Source: a virus
Length of the DNA: 64,000 nt
Strand: one strand, 5' to 3'
Virus record (IMG/VR): IMGVR_UViG_3300010373_000039
Coordinates: 1 to 64,000 of that record
The notes under the pieces were generated by a model. It was not told the DNA's origin. It ran no database searches and saw only the letters and a program-made list of their open reading frames with translations. This document shows positions 916 to 49,442 of this stretch, one piece after another. A program made the position numbers and the translations under genes. Each line of letters begins with the position of its first letter. The first letter of the stretch is position 1.

Positions 916-2094
916 ATGAGCGAACGTGTCATCGTATTTACGCCGCGCGAGGCCAATCGCTACCGGGAACGCTATCATCGGGTGTGTGACACCGAGCATG
1001 TCGTGGCGGGGGATGGGTTAATCATCCCGGTTGCGGACATCGACGCCGTTTTGGACCAACGCGCCCAAACTATCACCGCCGAAAACGAGCAATTGAAGGG
1101 GGATTTGCGGGTGGCGGTGTCGTTTCTTAACGATTTGACCGATTTGTTGGACCAATTCGTGCCGGTCCGTGAATTCATCGCCAAAATCCGGTTCCCCAAA
1201 CCCAAGAAAAATATCATGGAAACACCGACGCCCACCGATCCTACCGCCGTGTCCGAAATCACCCGTGGGTTGGCCATGTTCCTTCGGCACCGCAACATCT
1301 ACCGCGTGCCGGAGACCATCGACGTGACCGGTAAATCGACCCCGGATCACATTAAAAAGGGGGTGTACGGTGAAACCCGGTTTGATTGTGACAACGCCAA
1401 AAACCTGAACGTGTATTTGGACGGCATCAAACAGGATGCGGTGGAGGTGGACGTGAAGGGTGGGTGGGCGCGTTGCCAGGATCGTTGCATGGGGGCCCTG
1501 TACATCATCAACAACCAAATAAAGGAATCTATTCGGTTTGGCGAGGTGACGTTGGAATTTATGGACCCCGTTGCGGAAAAGGTCACAACCATCGCCGATC
1601 CGGCCGCAACCGTTGAAAAGGTGGTGGGCACCGAATCGACCACGGTTGCGGCGACCGCCAAACCGGAAACGATCGCTAAAAATACCGACGCCAAAATCAT
1701 GGTGACCGATTGCCTGGCCCGCATTTGCCAATTTGAATCGTGGATGCGCAGCTACAATTTCCTGCGTTCGCCTCTTGGGGAACAACAGGAATCCACCTCG
1801 TTGGACGGCATCCGGATTTTGGTCCATGGATTGGATGTGGCGGTGCAATTGGAAAAGGGTGGCCGGATTATCACCGCCACCGAATTACCCAATAGCGAAC
1901 ACACCGACAACATCGAGTTGTATCAAACCATCGTCAAAGCGCTGCCGATCCTGGGAAATCTATTGGTCAGCAACCATCATGCGATTATGAAGGATCAAGC
2001 TAATGCCCTCGATGTTTACGATGGGTGGTTTAAGGAGAATCGGCTACTTGAGAACGTGCCGAAAATAAAGGAGAGCCAATGGCCTACCACATAA
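916..2094 (+). CDS. hypothetical multidomain protein
   Basis: 392-aa ORF, GAAGG RBS. Confidence 0.75.
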   Translation: MSERVIVFTPREANRYRERYHRVCDTEHVVAGDGLIIPVADIDAVLDQRAQTITAENEQLKGDLRVAVSFLNDLTDLLDQFVPVREFIAKIRFPKPKKNIMETPTPTDPTAVSEITRGLAMFLRHRNIYRVPETIDVTGKSTPDHIKKGVYGETRFDCDNAKNLNVYLDGIKQDAVEVDVKGGWARCQDRCMGALYIINNQIKESIRFGEVTLEFMDPVAEKVTTIADPAATVEKVVGTESTTVAATAKPETIAKNTDAKIMVTDCLARICQFESWMRSYNFLRSPLGEQQESTSLDGIRILVHGLDVAVQLEKGGRIITATELPNSEHTDNIELYQTIVKALPILGNLLVSNHHAIMKDQANALDVYDGWFKENRLLENVPKIKESQWPTT

Positions 2095-2492
2095 CCTGCG
2101 AACGATGCGAAAAGAGGTGCCCGCAAAGGGCGAATTTTTGCCCCGCATGTGGGTATCAATTGGTTTCCTGTAGAACGGTTACCCGGTCCTTGCGGCAACA
2201 ACGTAAAATGCTGGACAAACAAAAACAATTGTTCGGACAGCCCCATTTGGTTGCGTTTGGCGAGGAATTGGAACGATTGGCTGCGGCGGGGGCGGTTTCA
2301 AAACAACATGAACCCAATGCGCGTGAATTGTTGGTGGGGTTTCACCAACGACGTATTGACAGGCTTGAAAAAGAACTGGCCGAGGAAAAACAGGAATTGG
2401 AAAAGGCCAAACAATCCGATCCGAACGCCCCCGTGATCCGTTGCCCGGTTTGCCGTGGCTACGAAAAACCCTATTGGTCATGCGATTGTTAG
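2079..2492 (+). CDS. zinc-ribbon/coiled-coil protein
   Basis: CERC, CPAC, CPVC and CDC Cys pairs; AAGGAG RBS. Confidence 0.7.
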   Translation: MAYHITCERCEKRCPQRANFCPACGYQLVSCRTVTRSLRQQRKMLDKQKQLFGQPHLVAFGEELERLAAAGAVSKQHEPNARELLVGFHQRRIDRLEKELAEEKQELEKAKQSDPNAPVIRCPVCRGYEKPYWSCDC

Positions 2493-2503
2493 AAAGGACA
2501 CCC

Positions 2504-2686
2504 ATGCGCGCAATGATGGTCAACCGTGGATTGCGGTTTTTCCAAGTGGCAAAGGCCTGCAATTTTTCCTTGAAGTCCCCGGCCCGGAAACGGGCCATTA
2601 GGAAAATCATCGCCCGTCGTGCCGGAACGGAACCGGCCTATGCGATTTTGGCGGCATCGATCCCCCGGCATCTTGTTTATATTTAG
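2504..2686 (+). CDS. small basic hypothetical protein
   Basis: AAAGGA RBS before ATG 2504; fills the gap between neighbours. Confidence 0.55.
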   Translation: MRAMMVNRGLRFFQVAKACNFSLKSPARKRAIRKIIARRAGTEPAYAILAASIPRHLVYI

Positions 2687-2689
2687 GTC

Positions 2690-2983
2690 ATGGACGAACA
2701 ACAACTAAATCAATTGACCCACGTGGCCCGCGACGGCGCGTTGACCAAGGAACAGGGGTTGGCGTTGATCCGGGAAATCCGGGAACACCAACATCATGAC
2801 AACCAAATGATGGAATTGCTTCTTTGCATGGTCCGCTACGCCGGTCATCCGGTGCCCAACACGGAAAACACCTACCGCGTGTCCATCCCGGTCAACCATG
2901 ACGTGCGCGACCACGATCAATTGGAAACCGGCCGGGACCTGGACAATAAAACCTTTACCTACATCCGTCGCAAAGGAGCATAA
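2690..2983 (+). CDS. hypothetical protein
   Basis: Tightly packed ORF. Confidence 0.7.
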   Translation: MDEQQLNQLTHVARDGALTKEQGLALIREIREHQHHDNQMMELLLCMVRYAGHPVPNTENTYRVSIPVNHDVRDHDQLETGRDLDNKTFTYIRRKGA

Positions 2984-2986
2984 ATC

Positions 2987-3367
2987 ATGTGCGCAAAAGA
3001 GGAAACAGCATCGGACCCCAAACCGGCACCACAGCCGATTCCCAATGACGCGAAGAAATTCGTCTCCGACGTGATCGAACGGTTCTACAAATCGTGCCGC
3101 GAAAAATCGACCGCGTTATCCGTCAACGAGATCCAATTCGATTTGATCCTGTTTCATTTTACGAAAACGGAAATGGAATTGGGCAAAATCGCCCAATTGA
3201 TAGGAATCGACCGCGCGCACCTCGATGAGTTGGTCGGTTTCATGTTTCAATCCCGTGGGTCCGTCCTTCGGTGTTACCAAACGGTTAAGGAAAACCACCA
3301 CGTCACCGATGCCCAATTGGAATCGGTTATTTCCGAGGTTATGGAGAAGGTTATCAAGGATACGTGA
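2987..3367 (+). CDS. hypothetical protein
   Basis: AAGGAG RBS, tight packing. Confidence 0.7.
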   Translation: MCAKEETASDPKPAPQPIPNDAKKFVSDVIERFYKSCREKSTALSVNEIQFDLILFHFTKTEMELGKIAQLIGIDRAHLDELVGFMFQSRGSVLRCYQTVKENHHVTDAQLESVISEVMEKVIKDT

Positions 3368-3371
3368 ACCC

Positions 3372-3986
3372 ATGACGTTTGAAAAAACCGCCGCGATCGT
3401 CGCCCAAAAACTCATGGAAGGGTTAAAGGATTTTCCGTGGGTGACCGAAACCCCGGAAACGTATTTGACGTTCACCGATTTATTCACGATCAACATCTAC
3501 CCCAAACGGGTGATCGGGGACCGCCAATGGATGGAATCGCTGGATCGGGCAACGGCTAAAATCGTCGCGGCGGTTCAAGAATATGCCTCGGTCCATAAAA
3601 ATATCCTCATGGTGGCACCGCCGAGAACTCCATTAGGTCTTGGCGTTAAAATGACGCAAATCGGTGGACCGTATGGGACCGTCGAGTATCGATTTGATTA
3701 TGTTGCACACGAACGGCTTCCACGATGTTGGGTTGGTTTTGTACTGGGCCATATCATACCGCCCGCACGGCCCACACCGGAGATGATCGACAAAATTCTC
3801 AAAAACCTGTTGCGGGACCATCGGGCGATCATCCAACACCGTTGCCGGGAATTTGAAAACAACCCCCATCCCGGCAAGGATAAAACCATGTGTCCGGTGT
3901 TGTCCGGCGATGGTCCGTGCGATAAATGTGAGGAGCGATCGTTGTATGTCCGGCTAAACCATCTTTTGGATTTGATCGAGGGATAA
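3372..3986 (+). CDS. hypothetical protein with C-terminal Cys/His cluster
   Basis: Start chosen at ATG 3372, just after the upstream stop. Confidence 0.65.
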   Translation: MTFEKTAAIVAQKLMEGLKDFPWVTETPETYLTFTDLFTINIYPKRVIGDRQWMESLDRATAKIVAAVQEYASVHKNILMVAPPRTPLGLGVKMTQIGGPYGTVEYRFDYVAHERLPRCWVGFVLGHIIPPARPTPEMIDKILKNLLRDHRAIIQHRCREFENNPHPGKDKTMCPVLSGDGPCDKCEERSLYVRLNHLLDLIEG

Positions 3987-3988
3987 TC

Positions 3989-4192
3989 ATGGGACGCCGG
4001 ATGCCACCCGATTTTCAAAAGCGGATCAGCGAGGGGATGAAACGGTATTGGCAGCGCCGCAAGGAAAATGAAAAATACTGCCACGCGCAACACAACGATG
4101 GGGAATGTGATTGGGCGAAATGTCCCAATCCGTCGAGGGATATTTTGGTGGGGCGATGCCCGTTGCCGCGACGGGAACGTTACGAATGTTGA
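3989..4192 (+). CDS. small Cys-rich protein with NUMOD3-like basic N-terminus
   Basis: KRISEGMKRYW segment; CHAQHNDGECDWAKCP...CPL. Confidence 0.6.
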   Translation: MGRRMPPDFQKRISEGMKRYWQRRKENEKYCHAQHNDGECDWAKCPNPSRDILVGRCPLPRRERYEC

Positions 4193-4203
4193 AGGAATTT
4201 CGG

Positions 4204-4581
4204 ATGTCATTTACGTTCCATTTTGAGAAAGGCGTTCCCACTTGGACAAGGAATTTTGTCCAATCGGTTTGCCGTAAAATGGAATCGATAACCGATATCC
4301 GTCACGATGTTTTGGTTTACGTGGTTCCATCCACCGCCGTTACCTTCAACAACACCGGATGTGGGTTTGGTTGTTTCACCCATCGGGTTAAGGGAAAACC
4401 CGCAATTATCCTGGCCGGACGCCGGTTACCGGAAATACCCGTTGCGGAGTGGGTGGACCATCTAACCGACACGATCATTCATGAGATTGTTCACTACGAG
4501 CAATTCCGTGATGAAAAACCAATCACCGAACGCGGCGTGGCCGTTCGCATCAAAAATCTTATTAGGATTGCAAACCAATGA
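4204..4581 (+). CDS. zincin-like metallopeptidase domain protein
   Basis: HExxH motif (IIHEIVHYEQ); AAGGA RBS. Confidence 0.6.
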   Translation: MSFTFHFEKGVPTWTRNFVQSVCRKMESITDIRHDVLVYVVPSTAVTFNNTGCGFGCFTHRVKGKPAIILAGRRLPEIPVAEWVDHLTDTIIHEIVHYEQFRDEKPITERGVAVRIKNLIRIANQ

Positions 4582-5162: not shown

Positions 5163-5166
5163 TCCA

Positions 5167-5448: not shown

Positions 5449-5450
5449 TT

Positions 5451-5810
5451 ATGGCAATCGACACCGACGGCGAGGGTGGGTTTATTATCCCACAAAACAT
5501 AACCAATGCGTTACCGCGAACGATTAGCGTAGAGATCGAACCCAACAAAAAGATTTTTCTTCGGACGCGGATCAACGACGAAAAGCTCGAGCATGAGGTT
5601 GAAATATCACGCAAGGCAATTGATTCGTTGATCCGGGAATTGCGGAAACACTCAACGATGACGGCGCACCAATGGGTTATGGAGGAGCTTGCGCGGATGG
5701 GGGTTGGGATGGTTCCCGGCAAGACGATTGTATTGGAATGCGTGGCGACGGTTCATGCACGAACGATAGAAAACGAAATCCAGCGCGCCGGCACCGTAAA
5801 ACATGATTGA
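5451..5810 (+). CDS. hypothetical protein
   Basis: AAGGAG RBS. Confidence 0.65.
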   Translation: MAIDTDGEGGFIIPQNITNALPRTISVEIEPNKKIFLRTRINDEKLEHEVEISRKAIDSLIRELRKHSTMTAHQWVMEELARMGVGMVPGKTIVLECVATVHARTIENEIQRAGTVKHD

Positions 5811-6387
5811 CGACCTTTCATTTTTTACCATCGTCCACAACGAGGAATCGTTGTTGCCGGGGTTGTTGTCGATCATGCGACCGGTAGCGGCGGAAATCGT
5901 TGTGGTGGTGCAGGAAAGCACCGACAAAACCCTTTACCATGCATGGCAATACGCGGATCGGGTGATTGGGGACAATCACTATGGGTTCATGGAACCATCG
6001 CTGAATCTTGCTCACGCCCAATGCACCAAACCATGGTTGCTTCAATTAGATGCCGATGAGATGCCTACGCCGCATTTATTAGAGGATCTTCATTGGATGG
6101 TTAAGTCGGGCAACAATGGTTTTCATTTGCACCGGATAAACTATGTGGATGACCGGCATTGTATCGATCCTGAAAACCCCCACGATATGCAGATGCGGTT
6201 ATGGCGGCGGAACCGTGTAAAAGCATTCCCCGGACGCCGAATCCACCGCACCGTAGAAATCCACCCGCCTATATCCAGCATTCTGTATGAATGCATCATC
6301 CACCGCAAAACCCGCGAACGATACGACGCCAACCAACTTCGATACAATCAATTGATAGCGTCCGGCGCTGCCGTTCAATGGCGTTAG
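5803..6387 (+). CDS. glycosyltransferase family 2
   Basis: GT-A signature: IVHNEE, EIVVV..ESTDKT, WLLQLDADE (DxD). Confidence 0.85.
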   Translation: MIDDLSFFTIVHNEESLLPGLLSIMRPVAAEIVVVVQESTDKTLYHAWQYADRVIGDNHYGFMEPSLNLAHAQCTKPWLLQLDADEMPTPHLLEDLHWMVKSGNNGFHLHRINYVDDRHCIDPENPHDMQMRLWRRNRVKAFPGRRIHRTVEIHPPISSILYECIIHRKTRERYDANQLRYNQLIASGAAVQWR

Positions 6388-6413
6388 GCCGGATTTAACA
6401 ACAGGAGCGACCG

Positions 6414-8482: not shown

Positions 8483-8491
8483 GGATTATTT

Positions 8492-9343
8492 GTGCTGCCT
8501 ATCGCCGTTGGCATCCCGACGTACACGAACCTTGCCGGATTGTCGCAGTTGGTCCCCTCGCTATTCAAACAGGGGGATGTGGCGGTTGATTTGATGATCG
8601 TTTGTAACCACCCCGACACATGGGGGTTCGTGGACGATTGGCGCAACGAATGGGGGGCGCATGTGTGGGCACCGACCGACAACCGGGGCGTAGCCGCGTC
8701 ATGGAATATCCTGGCCAAACATGCGTTCGCGACCGGTCACAACCAAATTATACTCCTTAATGACGACGTGGTTTTAAAATCGGATAAGGTTTTGTCCGAT
8801 TTGCTGTGGGCCAATCGACTATGGGATGGTCGTGCATTGTTCACCGCCGGCGTGAACGGTTGGCACACATTTAGCTTGTCCAAGAAGTTGTATGACGCCG
8901 TGGGGAATTTTGACGAGGGGTTTTGGCCCGCCTACTACGAGGATAACGATTATTCCCGCCGCATTGCGGTTTGGAGGAGTATGGAACAGATCATTTGTGA
9001 TTTTACCGGCTTGCCCTATAGACCGGTTGCCGGCGCGCGATTGATAGAGGAGGTGGGAATCATGTTGGGGGGTAAATATGAAAAACCGGTAACCCCTCTA
9101 AAGGAACGGTTTGAGGAATTAGCGATCAACGTTCCGGTCGAACACAACCTTCGTGGATCGCAAACAAACCATCCCGACGTAAAAACGTGGTTGGAAAAAA
9201 CCCATGACATCGTTCATGCCCGCTACATCGCCAAATGGGGCGGTCCGGCTAAACAAGAACGATTCACCCAACCATGGGACGGCAAACCGGGCTTGGACAC
9301 ATCCCGCTATATCTTAGAGCAAATGGGCTTGGGCAAACCCTAA
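8492..9343 (+). CDS. glycosyltransferase family 2
   Basis: VGIPTY, NRGVAASWN, ILLNDD, VGNFDEGFWPAYYEDNDY. Confidence 0.85.
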   Translation: MLPIAVGIPTYTNLAGLSQLVPSLFKQGDVAVDLMIVCNHPDTWGFVDDWRNEWGAHVWAPTDNRGVAASWNILAKHAFATGHNQIILLNDDVVLKSDKVLSDLLWANRLWDGRALFTAGVNGWHTFSLSKKLYDAVGNFDEGFWPAYYEDNDYSRRIAVWRSMEQIICDFTGLPYRPVAGARLIEEVGIMLGGKYEKPVTPLKERFEELAINVPVEHNLRGSQTNHPDVKTWLEKTHDIVHARYIAKWGGPAKQERFTQPWDGKPGLDTSRYILEQMGLGKP

Positions 9344-9843: not shown

Positions 9844-12687
9844 ATGCCACGCACCTCACGTCCGGCCCTTAGTTGTTGGGATCGGGACATTAACAACGTG
9901 GAGAAACCGTCGCCGTCCGCGTCGGATCGTTCCCCGTTTTGGTCCAAGGAGCAACCGGAATTCGAGTGTGGTGGTCGAATCTACTCGGCGTCCGAGTACG
10001 CCAAATTACCCGAGGAAATTCAAAAACATGGCCGGGTGGTGCGGGGCGGCATGTTTCCCCATCAACGCAAATGGTGGGAATTAAACACCTTTATCAAAGC
10101 GCTGATTGGAGGATTTGGTGCCGGCAAGACGTTGATCGGCGCTAAACGGGTCATCGCGTCGGCATTGGACAATTCCGGGTGTATGGTCGCGGCCGTGTCC
10201 CCGACGTTCCCATTGGCCCGCAAAACCATCATCCCGACTATCAGCAACCTTCTAGCCGGCAAACAAGCGAGATACGGTCGTGGGTTTTGGTGGAAATACA
10301 ACCGCACCTCCCATGAATTTTTCATCCGACATAAGGGACGTGACGGATGGATTCAAATCATGTCGGCCGAAGATCCGGATTCGTTGCGCGGACCCAATAT
10401 CGCATCGGCATGGTTGGATGAACCGTTCCTGATGGAGGAAACGGCATTCCGGCACATGGCGGCACGTATCCGCGCCGGCAATTCCCGTGAATTGCTTCTT
10501 ACGGGATGCGTCACGCGGGACACCCTGGTTTTGCCGAGATCTGGCATGACGCCGATCGGTGATTTGGACCCTGGAACCCTTCCAAAACAATATCGCCGGA
10601 TCGCGACCGATTTGTATGGTTCGCATCGATCGTTCCACCATGCCACGTCGTTTTTCAACAACGGGGTTTCCGAGACCAGGCGCATTACCGTTACCAACAA
10701 CTATCAAATCGAGGCCACACCGGACCATCCGGTTTTGGTCATGGGTGATGATGGTAAACCGCAATGGCGTCCGGTGGGCCAATTGCAAATCGGGGATCGT
10801 GTGGCGATTGGTCGTGGCATGGAGGTTTGGGGTAACGTCGATCCGTGCGAAGGATTTGTACCTCAACAACGGCGAAAAGTTAAAAAACCGTTGCCACAAA
10901 AAATCCAAATGACCAAGGATTTGGCCTATTTCCTTGGTTTGTGGTTGGCCGAGGGGAGCGTAGAACCGGGTCGGTTGACGATTACATGCGGCGATCCCTG
11001 TGTTATCAAGTATTTGTTGACTAAGGGTGTTTTGGGACTTCGGTTCCGTAAACAAAGCCGTGATAAACTTCACGTTCGACTTAGCTCGGTGGAGCTAATC
11101 GATTTGATGAGGCACCTTGGGATGCCATTGGTTACGGCTATAAATAAATACATTCCACAATGGGTTTGGAACGGTCGCCGCGAATGGGCGCTGTCGTTTT
11201 TGGCCGGAATGTGGGACGGTGACGGTTGCGCAATGCGTGATGGAGGGGGAATCAGCTACCGGACCAATTCTCCTCGATTGGCTCGCGACGTTCAATGTCT
11301 TTTATTGAATCTTGGAATAGTGTCGATCCGGCAGCGCACGGTTGAAAAAGAAATACAACCGGATGCGTTGGTGCAAACCCCAACGGTTGGTTATTACGTT
11401 GAATGTCGTGCCATGAACGCGGCCAAATTGGCCAAAATCCTTTCGTTCCGTATTCGGCGTAAAAAACAAAACGCGTCAATGCACATTCGGTCGATGCGTT
11501 GTTCGGATGTGTTGGCCGGATCGTCGGCGCTGATTTTGTCGGCGTGGCGTAAACGGTCTAAATTGACGTGGAGGAATTGGGACGGTAATCTTCAACCCAA
11601 CGTCATTCGGGAAACCGCCGCCGGACGCCCCGGCGTAGCCTATGGTACCGTCCGGGATTTCGTCCGTTATTGGGAAATGAACGAAGGAACGGCTTGCCCG
11701 GAAATTGAAATACTTAAGCAAAATCTTGGCGATAACTACTATTGGGCCAAGGTCCGCAAAATCGAACGGGGATTGGCCGAAACCGTTGATTTTGTCGTGC
11801 CCGAAACCCACTCATTTTGGTCCAATGGGTTTATCAGCCACAATACGCCCGAACAAATCAATTGGGGTCACGATTTATTGATGGGGGAAACGCGGGAAGA
11901 ATTTGAATCGCGTGAGGTTACGATTGGGATGGTTCAAGCATCGTCCCGGCAAAACCCCGCGACCGGCAAACAATACATCCGGCTACTAGAGGGCGCATTC
12001 ACCCATAAAATGGCCGAGGCGTTCATCGACGGTGGATTCGTCAATTTGTCTAAGGGACAGGTATACTATGGGTTCCAATCCATCGGCGATGAATCGAACG
12101 TCCGGGCGATAGACATACCGGACGGTGCGGAATTGGGCGTGGGGATGGATTTCAACGTGAATCCTATGTCGGCCGCCGTGTTTTGGCGGTTGGGCGAACG
12201 GATGCATTTCTTTGATGAGATCGAGTTGCCCAACGCCGATACCGACATGATGTGCGCCGAGTTGTACGACCGCTATGTAAATAAAGAAACCAAGGTCGTG
12301 CCCCCGCAAATCGCGCCGTTGGACGACATTTTTCCGGATGCATCGGGACAATCCCGGCATACCTCCAGCGCACGGGGTAAAACCGATTTCCACATTATCC
12401 GCGAGTATGGGTTTAGCGTCCGCGCCCCCCACGCGAACCCGAAGGTACGTGACCGGCAAAACGCGGTGAATGGCAAGCTTCGTCCGGTTAATGGTGAGAT
12501 TACCCTGACCATCTCGCCCAAATGCAAAAAATTGCAACGTTATCTGTTGACCTACACCCACGAATTGTCCAACCGGCCGGAACAAAAGGCCATGTCCCAT
12601 TTGTTGGACGCGTTTAGCTACCCGATCCATTACCTGTTCCCGTTGGCCCGCGCCCACACCGGGGAGTACCGGTTGACGGGCCTTTAG
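9844..12687 (+). CDS. terL: terminase large subunit containing an intein
   Basis: Walker A GGFGAGKT, Walker B WLDE, TG/TP coupling motif split by the intein, RNase H-like GMDFN, PDASG, HLLDAFSY. Confidence 0.95.
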   Translation: MPRTSRPALSCWDRDINNVEKPSPSASDRSPFWSKEQPEFECGGRIYSASEYAKLPEEIQKHGRVVRGGMFPHQRKWWELNTFIKALIGGFGAGKTLIGAKRVIASALDNSGCMVAAVSPTFPLARKTIIPTISNLLAGKQARYGRGFWWKYNRTSHEFFIRHKGRDGWIQIMSAEDPDSLRGPNIASAWLDEPFLMEETAFRHMAARIRAGNSRELLLTGCVTRDTLVLPRSGMTPIGDLDPGTLPKQYRRIATDLYGSHRSFHHATSFFNNGVSETRRITVTNNYQIEATPDHPVLVMGDDGKPQWRPVGQLQIGDRVAIGRGMEVWGNVDPCEGFVPQQRRKVKKPLPQKIQMTKDLAYFLGLWLAEGSVEPGRLTITCGDPCVIKYLLTKGVLGLRFRKQSRDKLHVRLSSVELIDLMRHLGMPLVTAINKYIPQWVWNGRREWALSFLAGMWDGDGCAMRDGGGISYRTNSPRLARDVQCLLLNLGIVSIRQRTVEKEIQPDALVQTPTVGYYVECRAMNAAKLAKILSFRIRRKKQNASMHIRSMRCSDVLAGSSALILSAWRKRSKLTWRNWDGNLQPNVIRETAAGRPGVAYGTVRDFVRYWEMNEGTACPEIEILKQNLGDNYYWAKVRKIERGLAETVDFVVPETHSFWSNGFISHNTPEQINWGHDLLMGETREEFESREVTIGMVQASSRQNPATGKQYIRLLEGAFTHKMAEAFIDGGFVNLSKGQVYYGFQSIGDESNVRAIDIPDGAELGVGMDFNVNPMSAAVFWRLGERMHFFDEIELPNADTDMMCAELYDRYVNKETKVVPPQIAPLDDIFPDASGQSRHTSSARGKTDFHIIREYGFSVRAPHANPKVRDRQNAVNGKLRPVNGEITLTISPKCKKLQRYLLTYTHELSNRPEQKAMSHLLDAFSYPIHYLFPLARAHTGEYRLTGL
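10507..11844 (+). mobile_element. intein with LAGLIDADG homing endonuclease (446 aa)
   Basis: Starts CVTRDTLV; block B ATPDHP; LAGLIDADG helices FLGLWLAEG and FLAGMWDGDG; ends FWSNGFISHN followed by Thr +1. Confidence 0.93.
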
Positions 12688-23003: not shown

Positions 23004-23741
23004 ATGAGCACAAAGTTTGCCCATAGCGGGGATTTGGGAGATATTATCTACGCAATGCCCGCGATCCGGGCATCGGGTGGCGGTTCCCTTCAATTGTGGA
23101 ATAACCAGGGTGTCACCACCCATGCCATGACCCCCCAACGGGTGTCAATCATCTACGATTTTTTGATTTCCCAGGACTACATCACGGCGGTTGAATTCGG
23201 CCCCCGGGCCAACCATCCCCTCAACAATTTCCGTGCGTTCAACAACGGTCGTCGCAATTTGGTGGACATGCATTTGGCCGCAATGGGGTTGCCGGTGGCC
23301 GAGCGGCGTTTCCCGTGGATTAAGATCGACGAGCCCCGTCGCGTGGCCGAGGTCATCATCTGGCGAACCCCACGATGGCACAGTTTTGAATTCCCGTGGG
23401 ATCATATTTGGGAACGGTTCGGCAAATTGTCGATTGGTTTCATTGGCTATCCCGACGAACACAAAGAATTTGTCCGGAGAACCGGACACAGGGTCGATCA
23501 CATCCCAACGGCTAATTTGTACGAGGCGGCGAGGGTCATTGCCGGCAGTACCGTTTGTGTTGGCAATCAAACATGTCTTGCCGCAATCGCCCACGGTTTG
23601 CGACACCCCATGATTTTGGAGATTTGTGGTCACGAACCCGTGGCCGTTTTTCAGTACGATGGTTTGTTCAATGCATATGATGCCGACTTTACACTTCCAA
23701 CCTTAACCAAGGAAAAACATGCGCGCGTTTCTAGTGTATGA
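23004..23741 (+). CDS. GT9/heptosyltransferase-like glycosyltransferase (GT-B)
   Basis: GDLGDII.AMPAIR N-terminus; NLYEAARVIAGS..CVGNQT...AIAHGL. Confidence 0.75.
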   Translation: MSTKFAHSGDLGDIIYAMPAIRASGGGSLQLWNNQGVTTHAMTPQRVSIIYDFLISQDYITAVEFGPRANHPLNNFRAFNNGRRNLVDMHLAAMGLPVAERRFPWIKIDEPRRVAEVIIWRTPRWHSFEFPWDHIWERFGKLSIGFIGYPDEHKEFVRRTGHRVDHIPTANLYEAARVIAGSTVCVGNQTCLAAIAHGLRHPMILEICGHEPVAVFQYDGLFNAYDADFTLPTLTKEKHARVSSV

Positions 23742-24789
23742 TGGTGGCGATTCGGTCTACGTTCCGCCGACGATGGGAACCCCCCGTGCCGATCAAATGC
23801 ACGGAACGCCGGGCGAGCAATTGGTCGAAATCTCCGGGCGCGTGTGCTATGACTCGCTGGGCACCGGCCGCAACACCCCCGAGTACCATAAACACCTTTT
23901 AGGTGTTAAACACTATTCGGTGCATGAGCACGTACATTTCACGGTCGAGGTCCAAGATTGGATGGACCCAACCCCGTGGATTGGTATTCCGGATGTGGTG
24001 TTCCGACCCATGCGTTCCGTCGCCCGTAACCGATTTACCTTCAATCTTCGTCACGCTTTGGAGTGGCCTACCCAACTTCCGCCGAATCTTTACAACGAAC
24101 GTGTTATCAAGGATTGGGGGCGCATTCTACAATGGGCGGCGCATGGGGTGGTGCCCAATTTGGTTCCCACGCCGGAAACGCGAATGCCACCGTCGTTGGA
24201 AATGCGTTTGGTGCGGCCCGAAACCGACCGGGAATGCTTCGTGTCACTGTTCCTTGAGGATTCGTTGGTGTGGTCGCACGAGCAGGTACGACACCGTTTC
24301 AACATGTCCCAACGATCCGGACGGTTCTGCGATCAAACCGACCGCGAATACGCCATACATCCCTTGTTGAAAAAATACCTCAACGAGGCCGGGTACATGG
24401 CATTGAACCCGGAGGACGGCGAGCAATTGTTCATGCAACCGACCGTCAACGATGCCGCCATACACGCCCGGACCCGGTTGGGCAATGACATCGGGTCGTT
24501 AATAACCCAAACCAAAATGGTCTACGAGGCCACGGTGGACGCGCTGCAAAAATACATCGGCGAAACCATGTCGGTGGATGCGACCACGGCCCGCAAACAG
24601 GCACGATCGGCCGGACGCTATTACCTTGGCCAGGGACTTTCCACCGAAATGATTTTCACGGCATCGGTCGCGTCGTGGCGGGGCATCTTTGAAAAACGGG
24701 TCAATCCGGCCGCCGACGCCGCGATTCACGAATTGATGTCGCAGGCTAAGGATTGTGTGTTAAAATCCCGTTACGGCCAATTGTTCTAA
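23719..24789 (+). CDS. thyX: flavin-dependent thymidylate synthase
   Basis: GRVCYDS, HYSVHEH, EQVRHR...SQRSGRF, ARKQAR..GRY.L, R...AAD.AI. Confidence 0.88.
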   Translation: MRAFLVYDGGDSVYVPPTMGTPRADQMHGTPGEQLVEISGRVCYDSLGTGRNTPEYHKHLLGVKHYSVHEHVHFTVEVQDWMDPTPWIGIPDVVFRPMRSVARNRFTFNLRHALEWPTQLPPNLYNERVIKDWGRILQWAAHGVVPNLVPTPETRMPPSLEMRLVRPETDRECFVSLFLEDSLVWSHEQVRHRFNMSQRSGRFCDQTDREYAIHPLLKKYLNEAGYMALNPEDGEQLFMQPTVNDAAIHARTRLGNDIGSLITQTKMVYEATVDALQKYIGETMSVDATTARKQARSAGRYYLGQGLSTEMIFTASVASWRGIFEKRVNPAADAAIHELMSQAKDCVLKSRYGQLF

Positions 24790-25364: not shown

Positions 25365-25883
25365 ATGGCTGCGGCCAAGTGCTACCTCGAACGAAGGCAA
25401 AAAGGCTGCTTGCCCATCCTTTGCGGTGGTGGCAGGCACTTTTTGATGCCTTTGGGTCGCGGGCACTTTGCCAAGGTTGATGTCGCCGATTTCAAAATCG
25501 TGCGGTACATGCCCTGGCGTTCATCCCCCCAAACCAACGGCGTTTATGTTTTCGGACAAAACGCGCCGCTTCACCGGTTTTTGATGAATCCGGGCAAAGA
25601 TTTTGAGGTGGACCATAAAAACGGCGACCCGCTTGACAACCGCCGTTCAAATCTTCGAGTAGTTTCCCACGCGGTCAATCAGCAGAATCAACGTGTACGT
25701 CGGAATAGCAAAACCGGCGTCCGAGGCGTTTCGTTTGAACGCCAAACGAATAAGTACAAAGCCTCCTTCAAAGTTGGGAATCGTGTAGTCACATTAGGTC
25801 GGTTCGTCAATTTGGCGGATGCCGCCGAGGCCCGTCGCGAAGCCGAGCTAAAGTTTTGGAACAGGACATATGCGGTTCGCTAG
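25365..25883 (+). CDS. HNH homing endonuclease with AP2 DNA-binding domain
   Basis: LHRFLM, VDHKNGDPLDNRRSNLR, SKTGVRGV, LGRF...AAEARREAE. Confidence 0.9.
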   Translation: MAAAKCYLERRQKGCLPILCGGGRHFLMPLGRGHFAKVDVADFKIVRYMPWRSSPQTNGVYVFGQNAPLHRFLMNPGKDFEVDHKNGDPLDNRRSNLRVVSHAVNQQNQRVRRNSKTGVRGVSFERQTNKYKASFKVGNRVVTLGRFVNLADAAEARREAELKFWNRTYAVR

Positions 25884-25925
25884 GTAAAACTGGCTGGACC
25901 GGTTTTGAAAGGTAAGGGTATCTAT

Positions 25926-27074
25926 ATCGCTAACATTTTAACCGCCGTTACCCCCAAACTGCTCGCCCAGGGCCTTCTAGCGCTTCGCCAGGTTGCGATC
26001 ATGCCGCAATTGGTGAACCAGGGCTATTCCCAGCTTGCCGGCGAACGCGGATCGTCGATTGACGTTCCGATTCCCTCCGCAATCACGGCGCAGGCCGTGG
26101 CCCCCGGCAATACGCCGCCCTCGACCGCCGATGTGCAGCCCACGTCGGTGAGTATCGCGCTCAACAACTGGTACGAAGCCCCGTTCTATTTGACCGATCA
26201 GGACATGATGACCGCCATGGAGGGAACCATCCCCATGCAGGCATCGGAAGCGATCAAATCGCTGGCCGTCCAGGTCAACAGCGACATTTTCTCGCTATAC
26301 AAGAACATCTATGGTTTTTCGGGCACCCCCGGCACTACGCCGTTCGCGTCCAACACCACGGATGTCACCACGACCCGTAAGATTTTGAACACCCAGCTCG
26401 CGCCGATTTCCGACCGCCGGTTTATGCTGGACCCCAGCGCTGAGGCCAACGCGCTGTCGCTCGCCGCGTTCCAGGCCTATCTTAACACCGACGACACCGG
26501 TGTTATCAAGGACGGTAACCTGGGCCGCAAACTGGGATTTGATTTCTACATGTCCCAGCTCGTTCCGACCCACACGGCCGGCTCGATCACCACGGGACTG
26601 ACCGCCAAGGCATCGACGGTCCAGGCGGTGGGCACCACGGCTATCGTTTGCACGACCGCCGCCTCTACCGGCGCCTGTGCGCTGGTTATCGGCGACATCA
26701 TCACGTTCGCCGGCGATACCCAAACCTACGTCGTGACGGCGGCGGCAACGCAGGCATCGGCCGCAACCGATGTGACGGTGAACATCTCCCCGGGTAAGAA
26801 GGTTGCCCTGGCCGGTGGTGAGGCCGTTACGCTCAAGGCATCGCACACCGTCAACCTCGCGTTCCATCGTGACGCGTTCGCATTTGCGACCCGTCCGCTG
26901 ACACAGGCGGCTGAGGGATTGGGCAACATCATTCAGAGCGCCGTGGACCCGGTTTCGGGCCTTAGCCTCCGGTTGGAAATCAGCCGCGAACACAAGCGGA
27001 CCCGATTCAGCTACGATATCCTTTACGGTATGCAATGCATCCGTAAGGAATTGGCGGCGCGATTGGCCGGATAA
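25926..27074 (+). CDS. major capsid protein (P22 coat-like); probable ATC start
   Basis: (M)ANILT..LLAQGL.ALR, NLAFHRDAFAFATRPL, DILYG; AAGGG RBS 7 nt before ATC; strong terminator after it. Confidence 0.9.
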   Translation: MANILTAVTPKLLAQGLLALRQVAIMPQLVNQGYSQLAGERGSSIDVPIPSAITAQAVAPGNTPPSTADVQPTSVSIALNNWYEAPFYLTDQDMMTAMEGTIPMQASEAIKSLAVQVNSDIFSLYKNIYGFSGTPGTTPFASNTTDVTTTRKILNTQLAPISDRRFMLDPSAEANALSLAAFQAYLNTDDTGVIKDGNLGRKLGFDFYMSQLVPTHTAGSITTGLTAKASTVQAVGTTAIVCTTAASTGACALVIGDIITFAGDTQTYVVTAAATQASAATDVTVNISPGKKVALAGGEAVTLKASHTVNLAFHRDAFAFATRPLTQAAEGLGNIIQSAVDPVSGLSLRLEISREHKRTRFSYDILYGMQCIRKELAARLAG

Positions 27075-29492: not shown

Positions 29493-29921
29493 ATGCCCCG
29501 TAAAACGACCGCAAAACCGTTGACCGAGGAACAAAGGAAATTGGCGTCCAATGTGGAAAAACTGGTTAATTACTTTGTGAGTAAAAACCCACGGCCCCGT
29601 TATCTGACGCCCGACGATTACCGGGCCGAGTTGTACCTGGCGGTGGTTCGTCGGTCATCGCAGTTTGATCCTAAAAAGGGAACGTTTGACACGTGGGCGT
29701 ACCGGGCGATGGAACAACGATTGAAAGGGTTGCACTATGCGGCGTACCAAAAGGCAACATATCGGGTTGGCAAAGAACGACATTTTAGAGAGGTCCGGGT
29801 GTTTTTCGTCGATGCGAAACTTTTCGATGTGTCTAGGTTCCGTCGTATTGATGGTGTCTATTACGGCAGTATTCGCAACACCGCAAGCCGTGGCCTCCGT
29901 AAGCTACAATGTGATGATTGA
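29493..29921 (+). CDS. sigma-70 family region-2-only protein
   Basis: LTEEQ.KL...KLV, DDY.AE..LAV.R....FDPKKGTFDTWAY..M; no region-4 HTH. Confidence 0.7.
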   Translation: MPRKTTAKPLTEEQRKLASNVEKLVNYFVSKNPRPRYLTPDDYRAELYLAVVRRSSQFDPKKGTFDTWAYRAMEQRLKGLHYAAYQKATYRVGKERHFREVRVFFVDAKLFDVSRFRRIDGVYYGSIRNTASRGLRKLQCDD

Positions 29922-30465
29922 CACCACCAATCTTCCCACCGCCCGGGATTACACGGTTCAATTCTACTTGACCAATTCCGACGCTACGGACAATTGGAGT
30001 CGGATCGTTCAACCCGACAGCTTTTCAATCGATGGTGATTTGTATCGGGACAATACCCACTACTATGCTGATCAACCAACCCTTGATCCGGTGCCAGCGC
30101 CAATCCCAATCAATTTCTACTTAACCCTCAACGGCGCTGCTGGAAGCAATGATGTCTTTTTGATGTCGATCCGGACCCCCGATGGGATTATCGCCGGTCC
30201 GGATGGAAGCGATTGGTTGGCGTGGGCGTCGATGGACACCGATTCGCCGGTTCTTAATTTTGACATGCCGGCCGGGGTGTCAATGACATCGGCCATTGTT
30301 CCCGAAACATCGTCGGCAATTTTGATGTTGGCGGGGATCGGCATCATCCTTTTGCTGCGTTCGCGCCGTCCAAAGGAACATGTCCGATGGATAACCAACC
30401 GTCCTTCAAATTTCATCCGCAAGTACGCGAATAACTATCCGGATTGTCCCCCGCGTCGTCGATAG
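29812..30465 (+). CDS. PEP-CTERM sorting-domain protein
   Basis: Signal peptide, SYNVMIDTTNL, C-terminal VPETSS + hydrophobic helix + RSRR. Confidence 0.75.
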   Translation: MRNFSMCLGSVVLMVSITAVFATPQAVASVSYNVMIDTTNLPTARDYTVQFYLTNSDATDNWSRIVQPDSFSIDGDLYRDNTHYYADQPTLDPVPAPIPINFYLTLNGAAGSNDVFLMSIRTPDGIIAGPDGSDWLAWASMDTDSPVLNFDMPAGVSMTSAIVPETSSAILMLAGIGIILLLRSRRPKEHVRWITNRPSNFIRKYANNYPDCPPRRR

Positions 30466-36862: not shown

Positions 36863-36864
36863 CC

Positions 36865-43714: not shown

Positions 43715-43725
43715 ACGAGGTTTTT

Positions 43726-45424: not shown

Positions 45425-46323
45425 TGTTGTTTCCATCGTTGGACAGGTTGCGGCAACACGCAACACACCGGTTCGCGTTTTTGTGGCGATTGGAGCGGGT
45501 GGATGGCGTCACGTTGCTGTTCACCGACCACGATTGCCCGATTACCTTCAATTACACCCATGCGTTGGCCGAGGCATTGGCCCCGGGGAACGTAGGAAAC
45601 GCCGCCGGCACCGACGAGATTTATTCCCCAGTCGATTCGTTTGCCGGCACGGCACGGCAAATGCAAACCGGGTTGAAGGATGCGAACGTCGAGATGACGG
45701 GCGTTGTGTTGTCATCCGGATTGATTACCGAGGCCGATTTGTTCGCCGGCCGTTATCGATCGGCCCGGGTCATCGAAATGCTGGTCGATAGTCGATTCCC
45801 CTACGCCGGCTATTTGACCCATGCCCAATACTTCATCGCCCAAACCACCTACACCCGGGAATTTTGGAAAGCGCAAATGTCGGGGGTGACGGCATGGGGG
45901 AACAAGGCGGCGGGCAACGTCTATTCGGTGTCGTGCCGGTTCCAATTGTACGACCCAAATACCTGTGGCGTCGATCCGACCGGCCACACCGCGACCGGGA
46001 CCGTGACTATCGTAACCGATCGACAAACCTTCAACGCCGGGGGTTTGAACCCGACGCCCAATGCCTATCGCTCCGGTCATCTAACGTGGCTGACCGGTTT
46101 CAATCGTGGTATCACATACGAGGTTAAATCCTCGTCCGGATCATTGTTGACCACCCAATTGGGAACGCCGTTCGATATCGGCGTCGGCGACACGTTTACG
46201 ATCACCGAGGGTTGCGACCATTTGCGGGGCACGTGTTCGGGAACGTTTGCCAACCTTAACCGGTTTGGCGGTTACCCGTTCCTGCCCGGCAACGACGTAA
46301 TGCTTCGCGGTCCGGTAACATAA
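45415..46323 (+). CDS. baseplate hub protein (DUF2163/BR0599, RcGTA-like)
   Basis: R.DG..L.FTDHD, ITEADL.AGRY, CR.QL.D..CGV, GCD....C...F.N..RFGG.PF.PG.D. Confidence 0.92.
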   Translation: MPLVLFPSLDRLRQHATHRFAFLWRLERVDGVTLLFTDHDCPITFNYTHALAEALAPGNVGNAAGTDEIYSPVDSFAGTARQMQTGLKDANVEMTGVVLSSGLITEADLFAGRYRSARVIEMLVDSRFPYAGYLTHAQYFIAQTTYTREFWKAQMSGVTAWGNKAAGNVYSVSCRFQLYDPNTCGVDPTGHTATGTVTIVTDRQTFNAGGLNPTPNAYRSGHLTWLTGFNRGITYEVKSSSGSLLTTQLGTPFDIGVGDTFTITEGCDHLRGTCSGTFANLNRFGGYPFLPGNDVMLRGPVT

Positions 46324-46335
46324 TTGGAGGTTACG

Positions 46336-46608
46336 ATGGGCGACACAATGGAAGGTTATATGCGGACGATTTCCTACAACACCCCACAGCAAACGCTTCC
46401 GTCCAACCCGACGAACATGGGCCACAACATTCACCATAGCGCGCTGTCCAAATCCGGGGCCAAGCACACCCCCGTTAGCGCGCCGGCGCGCAACACCGGT
46501 TCACGACAAAATGTCGTACCCAATCACCCCGTTCCGCCCGACAATGCCCCGGTGGACCGGCTGGACTCGCCGGTGCCGGGTGGCAAATCGTATGGAACCC
46601 CCGAATAG
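46336..46608 (+). CDS. small protein, paralog of 17831..18046
   Basis: GGAGG RBS; ALSKSGAKH motif. Confidence 0.7.
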   Translation: MGDTMEGYMRTISYNTPQQTLPSNPTNMGHNIHHSALSKSGAKHTPVSAPARNTGSRQNVVPNHPVPPDNAPVDRLDSPVPGGKSYGTPE

Positions 46609-46625
46609 ACGGCCCAGGATCGATT

Positions 46626-47045
46626 ATGACACGCGAAGATGTCATCCGATATGCCCGTATGTGGCTTGGAACCCCTTACGTCCATCAGGGACGATTGATG
46701 GGGGTCGGGGTGGATTGTATCGGGTTGGTGGCCGGCGTGGGCCAATACTTCGGGTTGCCCTATGAGGATCGTCGGGGATATGCACCGACCGGCCAAGGAG
46801 ATTTTTACCTTACCAATGAATTCGTCAAATGGATGGACCCGGTCTACACCGCCCATGCCCAACCCGGGGACGTGGCGTGTTTTTGGGTCCGCAAACCAAC
46901 GTTCATTTGCCATTGTGGAATTCTTACACCGGTTGGTTTGATTCATGTCCATTCGATCATCGGCCACGTGGCCGAGCATGTGATGGACGCCGGTTGGAAA
47001 AAACGTTTTGCGTGCGCGTTCCGGTTCCGTGGAATGAAGGATTAG
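46626..47045 (+). CDS. NlpC/P60 tail peptidase
   Basis: AR.WLGTPY.HQGR..GVGVDCIGLV, HCGI, IH. Confidence 0.92.
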   Translation: MTREDVIRYARMWLGTPYVHQGRLMGVGVDCIGLVAGVGQYFGLPYEDRRGYAPTGQGDFYLTNEFVKWMDPVYTAHAQPGDVACFWVRKPTFICHCGILTPVGLIHVHSIIGHVAEHVMDAGWKKRFACAFRFRGMKD

Positions 47046-47048
47046 TGT

Positions 47049-49442
47049 ATGGCAACCCTTGTTCTAGTCCCCATCGCCGCCGGCATCGCGGCCAACGCCA
47101 CGGCCGGGTTGGGCGCTACGGCCGCCGCCGTGGCCACCAGCGCTATTATCGGCGTTGCCGGAACCGTGGGTGCGCTGGTCGATCAAATGTATGTCTACCC
47201 GGCCATATTCGGCAACGGGGCATCGCAAATTAAGGGACCGCAACTCAACAACGTGGCGATTACCGGTGCCAGCGCCGGCACACCGATCAATTTTTGTCTA
47301 GGTCGCGAGAATCGGGTTGGCGGCTGCATCATTTGGGTCTCCAACCTTCGTAAAACGGCATCCAACGCCGGTTCAGGTGGCAAGGGCGGTACGAACGTCA
47401 CCACCTATCAATACTTTGTGGACATCGCCATTGCATGGGGCGAGGGAACCATCAATGCAATCCGCAAGATTTGGGCCGATGGAAAATTGATCTATGACCA
47501 GGCGTTGCAAAACAACAATTCGGGCCAATCGAACCTTTACGATTCATTGATTAACTATTTCGGCGACCAAACCACGCCCGATCCAACAATCAGCGCCGCG
47601 GAGGGTTCGTCCAACACCCCGTCATTCGTCAATACCTACTACACGGTCATCAACAATTTTGCCATTCACGATTGGGGCAACCGTATTCCCAATTTCACGG
47701 CGTTGGTCGAGGCCGAGGAACAAACGTTATTGGGTGATGCGATTGTCAAGATTTGGGAACGGACCGGGCGTCCGGGGTCCGATTTGGACGTGTCGTGGGT
47801 ATCGGATGTGGAGGTTCTTGGTTACACGTTGGCGGGACCGCAGAATCCGATCAATTCAATCGAACCGTTGATGATGGCCTATGATTTGATTACCCAGGAG
47901 CAGCATGGCGGGGTGATGCATTTCTACCATCGCAAGGATATGTTGCCGGTTTCGGTGGCGTCCAACGTCCTGGCGGCGGGTGCGGAAAAGGACACGCCGC
48001 TCCGCGCCTTTCAAATTACCGACAACGCCGATTGGGAGGTGGTGGATGAGGTGGATGTCACCTACACCGATCCGGCCACGTTTTGGCAACAGGGAATGCA
48101 GCGCGAGGTTAAATCCGACATCACCAACCGTTCGGTGTCGTCGATGTCGTTGCCGTTCACGTTGGATGCCAATAGCGCCAAACAAATCGCCGCGCGAGTA
48201 TTGTGGTCGGCCCAGGTGGAACGGTGGGCATCACAAATGACGTTGGCCCCGTCGCAATTGCACATCCTTGAAGGTGATGTGTTGCAATTGACCGCCGATA
48301 GTTTGACGTGGCGCAATCGGATCACCACCGTTTCACGGGGACAGAATTTTGTCTATGAATTGCATGGATCGGCCGAGCAATCCGGGGTGTTGGATCAATC
48401 CGGGTTGGTGGCCGATATCCCGATCATCCCGCCACAACCGGAACCGGCCGGCACGTCCACCCACACCGGGATTATGATGGAGATCCCAATCCTTCCATGG
48501 GAGGGGTATGATCGGGGAATCCATTTCGCGGTGTTCGCCGAGCCCGGGGACGATTGGCAGGGCGGTTCGGTCTATCTGTCCAAGACGGACAATGGCGATG
48601 GTTCCTATTGGTTGATGGCCGATTACCAAATCGAGGCCACGGGCGGGGCGGCGCAAAATATATTGCCGGCGTCCGGGCCGATCGGTTATTGGGACAACAC
48701 CACGACGTTGGTTGTCACCATGAACAACGGCCAATTCTTTAGCAATTTGGAATCGTTGGTGTTGACCGGGTACTTCAATCACGTGTACGTAGGAAAACCG
48801 GATGGAACGGGTGAGGTTATTGCGTTTTGCAACGCTACACTGACCGGACCCAATGAGTATACCCTAAGCAAATTACTTCGCGGCCGCATGGGAACCGAGG
48901 ACCGCATGGCCGGCCATTTGGTCGGGGATGCCGTGGTGCTGTTGCAACAGGATGGATCGATCCATTTCCATCCCTACAACACCGATGGGTTGGGTAAGAA
49001 TTTATTTTTCAAAACCGTTCCGTTGCATCGGCATTTGTCGGACGTGGCGGCCGCGAATTATTACCGATCGGCCCGTTCGGTTACCCCGTTCTCGCCGGTT
49101 AAAATCAAGGGTGTCCGGGACGGGTCCAACAACCTTACCATTTCGTGGTTCCGTCGAACCAACGAGTGGGCACCGATTTTCGATTTCCCGGACGCGGCCA
49201 ATTTGCCGGAAAATTTCCCATCCGACGAGTACGACATTTACATTTACAATGCATCGGGGTCCACCCTGTTGCGGACGTATCTAAACTATACGGGCGGCGA
49301 AAGTATTTTGTATTCCGCCGCCGTTCAAACGTCCGATGGGATCACCCCCGGGGATACGGTCCAGGTTATTGTGTATCAGGTCAACAGCGCATTGTCGCTA
49401 AATGGCGGCAAGGGCGTTGCATCGGCCCAAACAACCATTTAA
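47049..49442 (+). CDS. central tail/host-specificity protein (RcGTA megatron-like, lacking the TIM-barrel domain)
   Basis: RVGG.IIW, IWADGKLIYD, GNRIPNF, LS.LLRGR.GTE, ISW.RR. Confidence 0.88.
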   Translation: MATLVLVPIAAGIAANATAGLGATAAAVATSAIIGVAGTVGALVDQMYVYPAIFGNGASQIKGPQLNNVAITGASAGTPINFCLGRENRVGGCIIWVSNLRKTASNAGSGGKGGTNVTTYQYFVDIAIAWGEGTINAIRKIWADGKLIYDQALQNNNSGQSNLYDSLINYFGDQTTPDPTISAAEGSSNTPSFVNTYYTVINNFAIHDWGNRIPNFTALVEAEEQTLLGDAIVKIWERTGRPGSDLDVSWVSDVEVLGYTLAGPQNPINSIEPLMMAYDLITQEQHGGVMHFYHRKDMLPVSVASNVLAAGAEKDTPLRAFQITDNADWEVVDEVDVTYTDPATFWQQGMQREVKSDITNRSVSSMSLPFTLDANSAKQIAARVLWSAQVERWASQMTLAPSQLHILEGDVLQLTADSLTWRNRITTVSRGQNFVYELHGSAEQSGVLDQSGLVADIPIIPPQPEPAGTSTHTGIMMEIPILPWEGYDRGIHFAVFAEPGDDWQGGSVYLSKTDNGDGSYWLMADYQIEATGGAAQNILPASGPIGYWDNTTTLVVTMNNGQFFSNLESLVLTGYFNHVYVGKPDGTGEVIAFCNATLTGPNEYTLSKLLRGRMGTEDRMAGHLVGDAVVLLQQDGSIHFHPYNTDGLGKNLFFKTVPLHRHLSDVAAANYYRSARSVTPFSPVKIKGVRDGSNNLTISWFRRTNEWAPIFDFPDAANLPENFPSDEYDIYIYNASGSTLLRTYLNYTGGESILYSAAVQTSDGITPGDTVQVIVYQVNSALSLNGGKGVASAQTTI

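Follow-up and report, generated by a model that had tools for sequence, protein, structure and literature searches.

An AG/CT deficit in a tailed-phage genome probably reflects selection against the number of CTB/VAG sites

Why should a phage genome hold fewer than half of the AG and CT steps expected of it? The question is raised by the virus record IMGVR_UViG_3300010373_000039, a single contig of 97,455 bp, the first 64 kb of which (positions 1 to 64,000, referred to below as the window) make up the stretch studied here. In the window, the symmetrised AG/CT odds ratio was 0.41, with 3,280 occurrences observed and 7,944 expected, and the ratio for the whole genome was likewise 0.41 (4,950 observed versus 12,111 expected). 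GA/TC, with the two bases in the opposite order, was ordinary (0.97), AA/TT (1.40) and CC/GG (1.17) were enriched, and 37 of the 40 rarest tetranucleotides contained AG or CT. A preliminary description of the window had reported a depletion of ACT, GCT and TCT together with their complements (DCT/AGH, where D is not C and H is not G) that spares CCT/AGG, and had offered two explanations, erosion of a modified C to T or selection against a short motif. Its hand counts proved exact: 3 DCT/AGH and 9 CCT/AGG at 1141–1500, 17 DCT/AGH at 26041–26400, and 7 AG/CT dinucleotides at 48181–48360.

The limits of 1141 and 49442 that had been set on the deficit are arbitrary, given that it covers the window and runs on to position 97,455. 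Odds ratios were 0.27–0.63 in all 1.5-kb segments across the 97 kb (0.31 at 48–49.5 kb), 0.17–0.69 in individual genes of at least 150 amino acids, with 0.69 as the maximum, and 0.51 in intergenic DNA, ribosome-binding sites included. There were no AG/CT-free islands, the longest gap being 197 nt versus approximately 167 nt expected, and no undepleted (foreign) segment was seen in a genome-wide search. Positions 50500–50650 and 63180–63500, which had been described as undepleted, were confirmed as patches by their counts (9 and 16 DCT/AGH, respectively) but are local fluctuations within depleted genes.

Codon usage is distorted accordingly. The reported skew of Leu and Gln codons to TTG and CAA was borne out by relative synonymous codon usage (RSCU) values of 3.03 and 1.44, respectively, and NCT codons were under-used 5–8 fold (RSCU of 0.12–0.21) compared with GGT, GTT and CGT (approximately 1). 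For codon boundaries, we permuted synonymous codons within each gene, so that the protein and the codon usage of each gene were kept. Against this null, boundary AG fell to 0.33 times (z = −35) and boundary CT to 0.43 times (z = −34) expectation, making them the most extreme 2 of the 16 dinucleotides; the next most deviant were TA and GA, at 0.77. Within codons, AG was at 0.50 and CT at 0.45 under a null that keeps only the proteins and third-base composition. The deficit thus persisted after correction for codon and amino acid usage, rather than giving way to odds ratios near 1. AG/CT-containing 5- and 6-mers mostly matched Markov expectation (observed-to-expected ratios of approximately 0.7–1.3); longer words are therefore predicted by lower orders, and the deficit belongs to words of two to three nucleotides.

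On the coding strand, AG (0.42) and CT (0.41) were equally scarce, and tetranucleotides matched their reverse complements (CAGT, 0.17, and ACTG, 0.14; GAGA, 0.25, and TCTC, 0.24). The cause therefore acts on DNA, whether on the duplex or on each of its single strands, rather than on mRNA, and we rejected an RNA-level explanation for this reason. An artifact or a recoded genome was also rejected, given that reading frames are intact, that the capsid protein is 52–75% identical to those of relatives, and that the pattern tracks synonymous freedom and the neighboring codons. A two-part target with fixed spacing was considered as well, and was dismissed because the pair correlation of AG/CT at distances of 1–40 nt showed codon periodicity only.

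The target motif is CTB/VAG (B, not A; V, not T), with CTA/TAG exempt. At codon boundaries, all VAG and CTB contexts stood at 0.11–0.43 (CAGN at 0.11–0.25, AAGN at 0.18–0.30, GAGN at 0.22–0.43) and TAG and CTA contexts at 0.92–1.28, which is also the range of TAGN. Depletion was strongest at CAGT/ACTG and CAGA/TCTG (CAGW). The share of C among third-position pyrimidines, C/(C+T), was 0.10 before TG, 0.15 before TT, 0.22 before TC and 0.58 before TA, and third-position A before G fell 7–9 fold after C or G and 1.5 fold after T. The sparing of CCT/AGG holds in raw counts, such as the 9 versus 3 of the first example stretch, but not as a rule of the motif. Boundary CCTB (0.21–0.48) was only slightly less depleted than DCTB, and the CCT codon (RSCU of 0.20) was rare like ACT, GCT and TCT. 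The sparing arises mainly because Lys, Glu or Gln followed by a G-starting codon cannot avoid AG: this obligate AG is resolved as NAG|G, yielding AGG approximately 760 times in genes of at least 100 amino acids, and so forms a coding floor.

Selection and mutation can be told apart by codon choices in which both synonymous options hold exactly one AG or CT, and we used these choices as internal controls. For Gln, Lys and Glu, the share of NAA was 0.73–0.86 in general and 0.16 before a G-starting codon, where NAG accounted for 84%. For Leu, the share of CTN was 0.25–0.36 in general and 0.87 after a C-ending codon, where C|TTR and C|CTN both contain one CT. These shifts in odds amounted to approximately 15–21 fold and were the same on both strands. 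Given that the preference reverts where the AG/CT cost cancels, the unperturbed preference of the phage is for AG/CT-containing codons, and it is overridden by a penalty per site. At third-position C before T, the bases A, G and T took over in proportion, and not T alone. The same controls, run on Vibrio phage SSP002 and eight related contigs, showed no such context effects. Count-type controls thus support selection against a short motif, and refute the erosion of a modified C to T, which predicts the opposite of 84% NAG before G and 87% CTN after C. Erosion also fails on NCT codons, whose C is synonymously immutable and which are nonetheless under-used. Protein sequences carry a modest footprint of the purge, which is slightly visible in them: the AG-forcing dipeptides [KEQ][VADEG] were found at 0.78 of expectation, versus approximately 0.96 in relatives.

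The major capsid gene (25905–27074, plus strand), whose product is 52% identical to the capsid protein of SSP002 (SSP002/MAR10 group), is among the least depleted genes, with an odds ratio of 0.63. Its codon boundaries are nevertheless purged as strongly as elsewhere, with third-position A before G at 0.000 (0.136 in other genes) and C before TB at 0.27 (0.69 in other genes). What is higher is its in-codon usage (CTN, 0.70; NAG, 0.47), which is what a highly expressed gene should show if the purge trades off against codon choice, and not a sign that the pressure is lacking. That the capsid gene keeps CTN and NAG suggests that host translation favors AG/CT-containing codons, which argues against mimicry of the host by the phage. 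The earlier proposal that less depleted DNA is either highly expressed or recently acquired therefore stands in its first part, for the capsid gene, and not in its second, no segment having the look of a recent acquisition. Directly upstream of the capsid gene lies a gene for an HNH endonuclease (window positions 25365–25883), which at 0.64 is also among the least depleted.

We collected relatives by starting from capsid, portal and replication proteins and from homologues of the candidate genes described below. Among the 84 related contigs of at least 3 kb (with the purged contig L004 set aside), the mean AG/CT odds ratio was 0.93 with a standard deviation of 0.09, so that the genome studied here lies approximately 6 standard deviations below them. 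The closest capsid relative (L030, 75% amino acid identity, a 1.3-kb contig) was at 0.94, SSP002 was at 1.10, and bacterial contigs in which related capsids occur (Gemmatimonadaceae, Thalassobaculum, Nisaea and Planctomycetota) were at 0.67–0.92. L004, which is identical to L051 (IMGVR_UViG_3300028920_000277 / Ga0272441_10005116), spans 23 kb, has a capsid identity of 55% and an AG/CT ratio of 0.45, and shows the same boundary and count-type control signatures as the phage studied here. Its flanking preferences differ: GCTS and CCTC are nearly absent (GCTC, GCTG, CCTC and CCTA at 0.03–0.09), TAG is depleted, AAG and CAGG are spared, and GAA is used at 94–97% even before G. Such variable flanks fit a protein reader of variable specificity better than they fit a fixed chemistry. 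The purge is thus not inherited from the lineage but is recent and convergent.

The genome also avoids palindromes. Across the 97 kb, 14 hexamer palindromes free of AG and CT were strongly avoided, with observed versus Markov-expected counts of 0 versus 105 for GGATCC, 0 versus 59 for GTCGAC and 0 versus 40 for GACGTC; GTGCAC was also absent. CAATTG, GCCGGC, CGGCCG and ATCGAT were enriched 3–5 fold. Given that SSP002 shows palindrome avoidance without the AG/CT purge, the two are independent. We did consider the purge as a case of classical palindrome avoidance, and rejected this possibility because the AG/CT signal resides at the di- and trinucleotide level and longer words match Markov expectation.

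We propose, with a probability of about 0.6, that the genome has been rewritten by selection against the count of CTB/VAG sites, imposed by a candidate reader of phage DNA that probably belongs to host defense. Selection would act on the number of 5′-CTB-3′/5′-VAG-3′ sites, counted on both strands, with each remaining site exposing the phage to a small risk, about the same for all sites, from an agent that recognizes the motif. The most likely candidate agent would be a DNA-targeting defense of the host with a degenerate 3-bp specificity, in the form of a frequent-cutting nickase in the style of Nt.CviPII or Nt.CviQII, a restriction enzyme or a base-modifying enzyme, and the phage would escape by diluting its sites rather than by modifying its DNA. 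Several points weigh against this proposal. We know of no enzyme, protospacer-adjacent motif (PAM) or toxin reported to read CTB/VAG. To purge approximately 7,000 sites, selection must be effective even though each site contributes very little. Palindrome avoidance lends the proposal no support, SSP002 being alike in this respect. The loss of third-position A before G benefits G and not C or T, which an A-to-G bias confined to this one class of sites could also produce. Finally, a hazard made by the phage itself stands as a rival, although we judge it unlikely.

That rival supposes a short-motif enzyme of the phage's own, such as a frequent-cutting nickase directed at host DNA together with a cognate methyltransferase, or a DNA-modifying pathway, with few sites serving to spare new phage DNA from damage or overload. 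The genome does encode two N6_N4 methyltransferases (one of the SPPY type), a further S-adenosylmethionine (SAM)-dependent methyltransferase, a DUF1643 protein and a 220–amino acid protein, and genes of this set are missing from the replication module of L115. Chloroviruses provide a precedent, their nickase Nt.CviQII (R^AG) being accompanied by a methylase of AG (PMC3017599). Phages that carry the best homologues are not purged, however, their AG/CT ratios being 0.98 for the SPPY methyltransferase (MTase1), 0.95 and 0.83 for the other N6_N4 methyltransferase (MTase2) and 0.97 for DUF1643, although identities of only 41–60% mean that specificity may differ. Scans against Pfam, PHROGs and NCBIfam recognized no nickase candidate, and L115 offers just one comparison. 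It is still less probable that the host chromosome bears the same signature, through mutation and repair or through codon usage, and that the phage follows it. Where both options cost the same, CTN (87%) and NAG (84%) are the codons that the phage prefers, and its capsid gene keeps more such codons; codon usage is unable to explain depletion at boundaries, and bacterial contigs with related capsids all lie within 0.67–0.92.

Context-specific mutation or biased repair, whether a modified C in DCT is deaminated or AG/CT steps undergo A-to-G and T-to-C change, is very improbable. The enrichment of AA/TT (1.40) and CC/GG (1.17) would suit it, as would the replacement of NCT mostly by NCC and of third-position A before G by G. 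Three internal controls contradict it. C-to-T change predicts enrichment of third-position T before T and of NAA before G, neither of which was found, and T-to-C change is unable to explain either the 3- to 5-fold loss of third-position C before T or the recovery of CTN to 87% after C; the differing flanks of L004 also count against it. Decay by methylation and deamination of the CpG type was rejected on similar grounds, since it predicts a build-up of TT/AA at synonymous sites and the retention of coding-protected sites and is contradicted by the loss of NCT and by the proportional replacement of third-position C. A physical or non-enzymatic cause, either a DNA-binding small molecule from the surroundings of the host or a packaging or ejection structure that disfavors the AG/CT step, has just as little probability in our view. 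The purge does have the count dependence, strand symmetry, evenness over the genome and lack of preferred site spacing that such a cause would give. The sharp exemption of CTA/TAG and the flanks of L004 look instead like recognition by a protein, relatives of the same capsid family do not need the purge, and we know of no ligand or packaging rule with AG/CT specificity.

The replication arm occupies the minus strand from approximately 50 kb of the window and encodes a clamp loader, gp32-like and RecA-like proteins, DnaB and an SNF2 helicase, in addition to the UDG-fused polymerase and three methyltransferases. MTase1 (59126–60202, minus) is a beta-class N6_N4 DNA methyltransferase with SPPY as motif IV (Pfam N6_N4_Mtase, E = 3.9e-49) and is adjoined by the small SAM-dependent methyltransferase (58458–59129, minus; Pfam Methyltransf_25/12/11). 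A family-A DNA polymerase with a family-4 uracil-DNA glycosylase (UDG) domain follows at 60189–62852 (minus; Pfam DNA_pol_A, UDG and exo, NCBIfam UDG_fam4), and the DUF1643 protein lies at 52204–52728 (minus; Pfam DUF1643, E = 1.1e-40). The gene for the 220–amino acid protein (window positions 62857–63519, minus) separates the polymerase gene from the next one that is conserved. Its atlas model gave TM scores of 0.36–0.41 to the phage sponge anti-defense families Sequestin, Acb2/Tad1 and Tad2-like, which are too weak to name it. In a single comparison, the syntenic module of L115 was without MTase1, the adjacent SAM-dependent methyltransferase, DUF1643 and the 220–amino acid protein.

The preliminary description had linked the deficit to the SPPY methyltransferase, the UDG-fused polymerase and DUF1643, and none of these links found support. 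The phage with the best MTase1 homologue, MW202482.1, is the one with an AG ratio of 0.98; UDG-fused polymerases, the subject of PMC13697223, are shared with the non-depleted SSP002 (1.10) and L115 (1.02); and DUF1643 homologues occur in 148 cultured phage records, one of which, MW202621.1, was sampled and gave the value of 0.97. MW202482.1 itself (L118, a Manatee Spring podovirus, 12145–43242; unrelated) has a different dinucleotide purged, with CA/TG at 0.48, GA/TC at 1.58 and CG at 1.67. Outside the window, at genome positions 75520–78475 (L003:1492–2475, L001:15520–16287), MTase2 (genome positions 77492–78475), a ParB-type methyltransferase with a CPPY motif, lies just upstream of a fold-type-II pyridoxal phosphate (PLP) enzyme. 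In Pseudanabaena phage Pam4 (gene 70, 829 amino acids) and Erythrobacter phage R6L (gp1), MTase2 matches in three pieces within one large protein, annotated as a PLP enzyme or a methylase, and this arrangement suggests a conserved methyltransferase–PLP module. Pam4 and R6L, which carry these fused homologues, are the phages at 0.95 and 0.83 and are thus not depleted.

Could the pyrimidines of this phage be modified instead? Pathways of the SPO1/SP15 type comprise a dUMP hydroxymethylase, a 5-hydroxymethyldeoxyuridine (5-hmdU) DNA kinase, an aGPT-Pplase and linker or sugar transferases. Candidate components of such a pathway here are the UDG-fused polymerase, the PLP enzyme, a ThyX-like protein and two GT2-type glycosyltransferases. 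The ThyX-like thymidylate synthase (23719–24789, plus) carries an extra NH2-terminal region of 180 amino acids, matches Pfam Thy1 (E = 8e-20), falls below the NCBIfam thyX cut-off and was weighed as an enzyme that might supply a modified pyrimidine. The glycosyltransferases are encoded at 5803–6387 (plus) and 8492–9343 (Pfam Glycos_transf_2, E = 7.7e-6 and 1.2e-4, respectively), the latter with a weak match below the cut-off to TET-associated glycosyltransferases (TAGT, E = 0.004); a PHROG galactosyl transferase match was also obtained. Among the proteins scanned, no Pfam, PHROG or NCBIfam match suggested a 5-hmdU DNA kinase or an aGPT-Pplase, and palindromes that contain T are strongly avoided, which speaks against T being fully protected. 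The polymerase type, moreover, is shared with non-depleted relatives. Hypermodification of thymidine in the TS context (PMC6449724) therefore appears unlikely.

The contig otherwise carries a tailed-phage gene set, with a large terminase, a portal, a P22-type major capsid protein and tail genes. The open reading frame that holds the first example stretch (916–2094, plus; 392 amino acids) had no Pfam or PHROG match, and the second example stretch falls in a distal tail gene (47049–49442, plus). An intein that contains a LAGLIDADG homing endonuclease (protein residues ~248–667) splits the large terminase gene (window positions 9844–12687); the DNA of the intein has an AG/CT ratio of approximately 0.37 and is as poor as its flanks, so that it is not a newcomer from an undepleted genome. 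A late-region protein (window positions 29737–30465) resembles PEP-CTERM proteins of Pseudomonadota (atlas score of 0.94; NCBIfam PEP-CTERM below the cut-off), a weak hint of an exosortase system in the host. No tRNA genes were found in the 97 kb, and hence no phage tRNAs that would offset the codon bias. DNA-level searches against cultured phages gave no match to the whole phage and no close relatives with which to polarize substitutions, and IMG/VR searches with the polymerase and the tail protein singly gave nothing. Runs of C at the contig ends (10 at window positions 1–10; 21 and 13 at genome positions 97416–97436 and 97443–97455, respectively) look like an artifact of library or assembly rather than phage sequence.

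Phages are known to avoid restriction sites and PAMs, motifs whose readers have been identified, whereas CTB/VAG fits no known reader. The effect per site is sufficient to reverse codon preference 15–21 fold and to shift dipeptide usage, and the exact footprint (CTB/VAG, strongest at CAGW, with CTA exempt) can be used to search for the enzyme responsible. If the agent is a defense system, it would represent a new class with near-dinucleotide specificity, of relevance to phage engineering and to the prediction of host range. More tentatively, and with somewhat less than even odds, we suggest that a previously unrecognized DNA-reading hazard centered on AG/CT and 3 bp in width, plausibly a widespread class of bacterial defense, kills phages according to site count, and that several unrelated lineages, the present phage and L004 among them, have responded by thinning the motif across the genome rather than by modifying their DNA. 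The controls in which both options hold one site can be applied to any genome, and separate selection from mutation bias without relatives.

Among known systems, CRISPR-Cas PAM avoidance (AAG for type I-E, CC for type I-F) shares with the purge a duplex motif of 2–3 bp and a benefit that scales with the number of sites removed. We rejected it as the explanation, given that AAG is less depleted than CAG, that TAG is exempt and that CC/GG is enriched (1.17). To our knowledge, reported PAM depletion is much weaker than the AG/CT purge, and no PAM is known to have the form VAG/CTB. Avoidance of DnaG start sites was also considered. Proteobacterial DnaG uses the templates d(CTG) and d(CTA), and that of Firmicutes d(CTA)/d(TTA) (PMC2978363); here CTA is exempt, and CTT and CTC, which are not reported as used, are purged. 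Guanine ADP-ribosylation by DarT1 was set aside because no consensus motif is reported for it (PMC11543638). Literature searches turned up no description of a purge of AG/CT from phage genomes.

The chlorovirus enzymes Nt.CviPII (^CCD), Nt.CviQII (R^AG) and M.CviQII, which methylates AG, have specificities of 2–3 bp (PMC3017599) and recall the present motif in style, with two fixed bases plus one "not-X" base and with one enzyme reading AG. They belong, however, to viruses of algae, and R^AG predicts the loss of AAG and GAG only; a reader of the Nt.CviQII type was rejected because CAG is the most depleted here and TAG is exempt. The phage's own methyltransferases resemble no more than generic beta-class enzymes. 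CpG depletion in vertebrates and the avoidance of CpG and UpA in RNA viruses resemble the purge in that one dinucleotide is scarce genome-wide and codon usage is distorted; the present case differs in that selection acts on site count and in that the symmetry of AG and CT on the coding strand points to a cause at the level of DNA. As in classical restriction-site avoidance, target words have been removed by synonymous change, but here the motif is 3 bp long, non-palindromic and degenerate, and its approximately 12,000 expected occurrences have been thinned to 41%.

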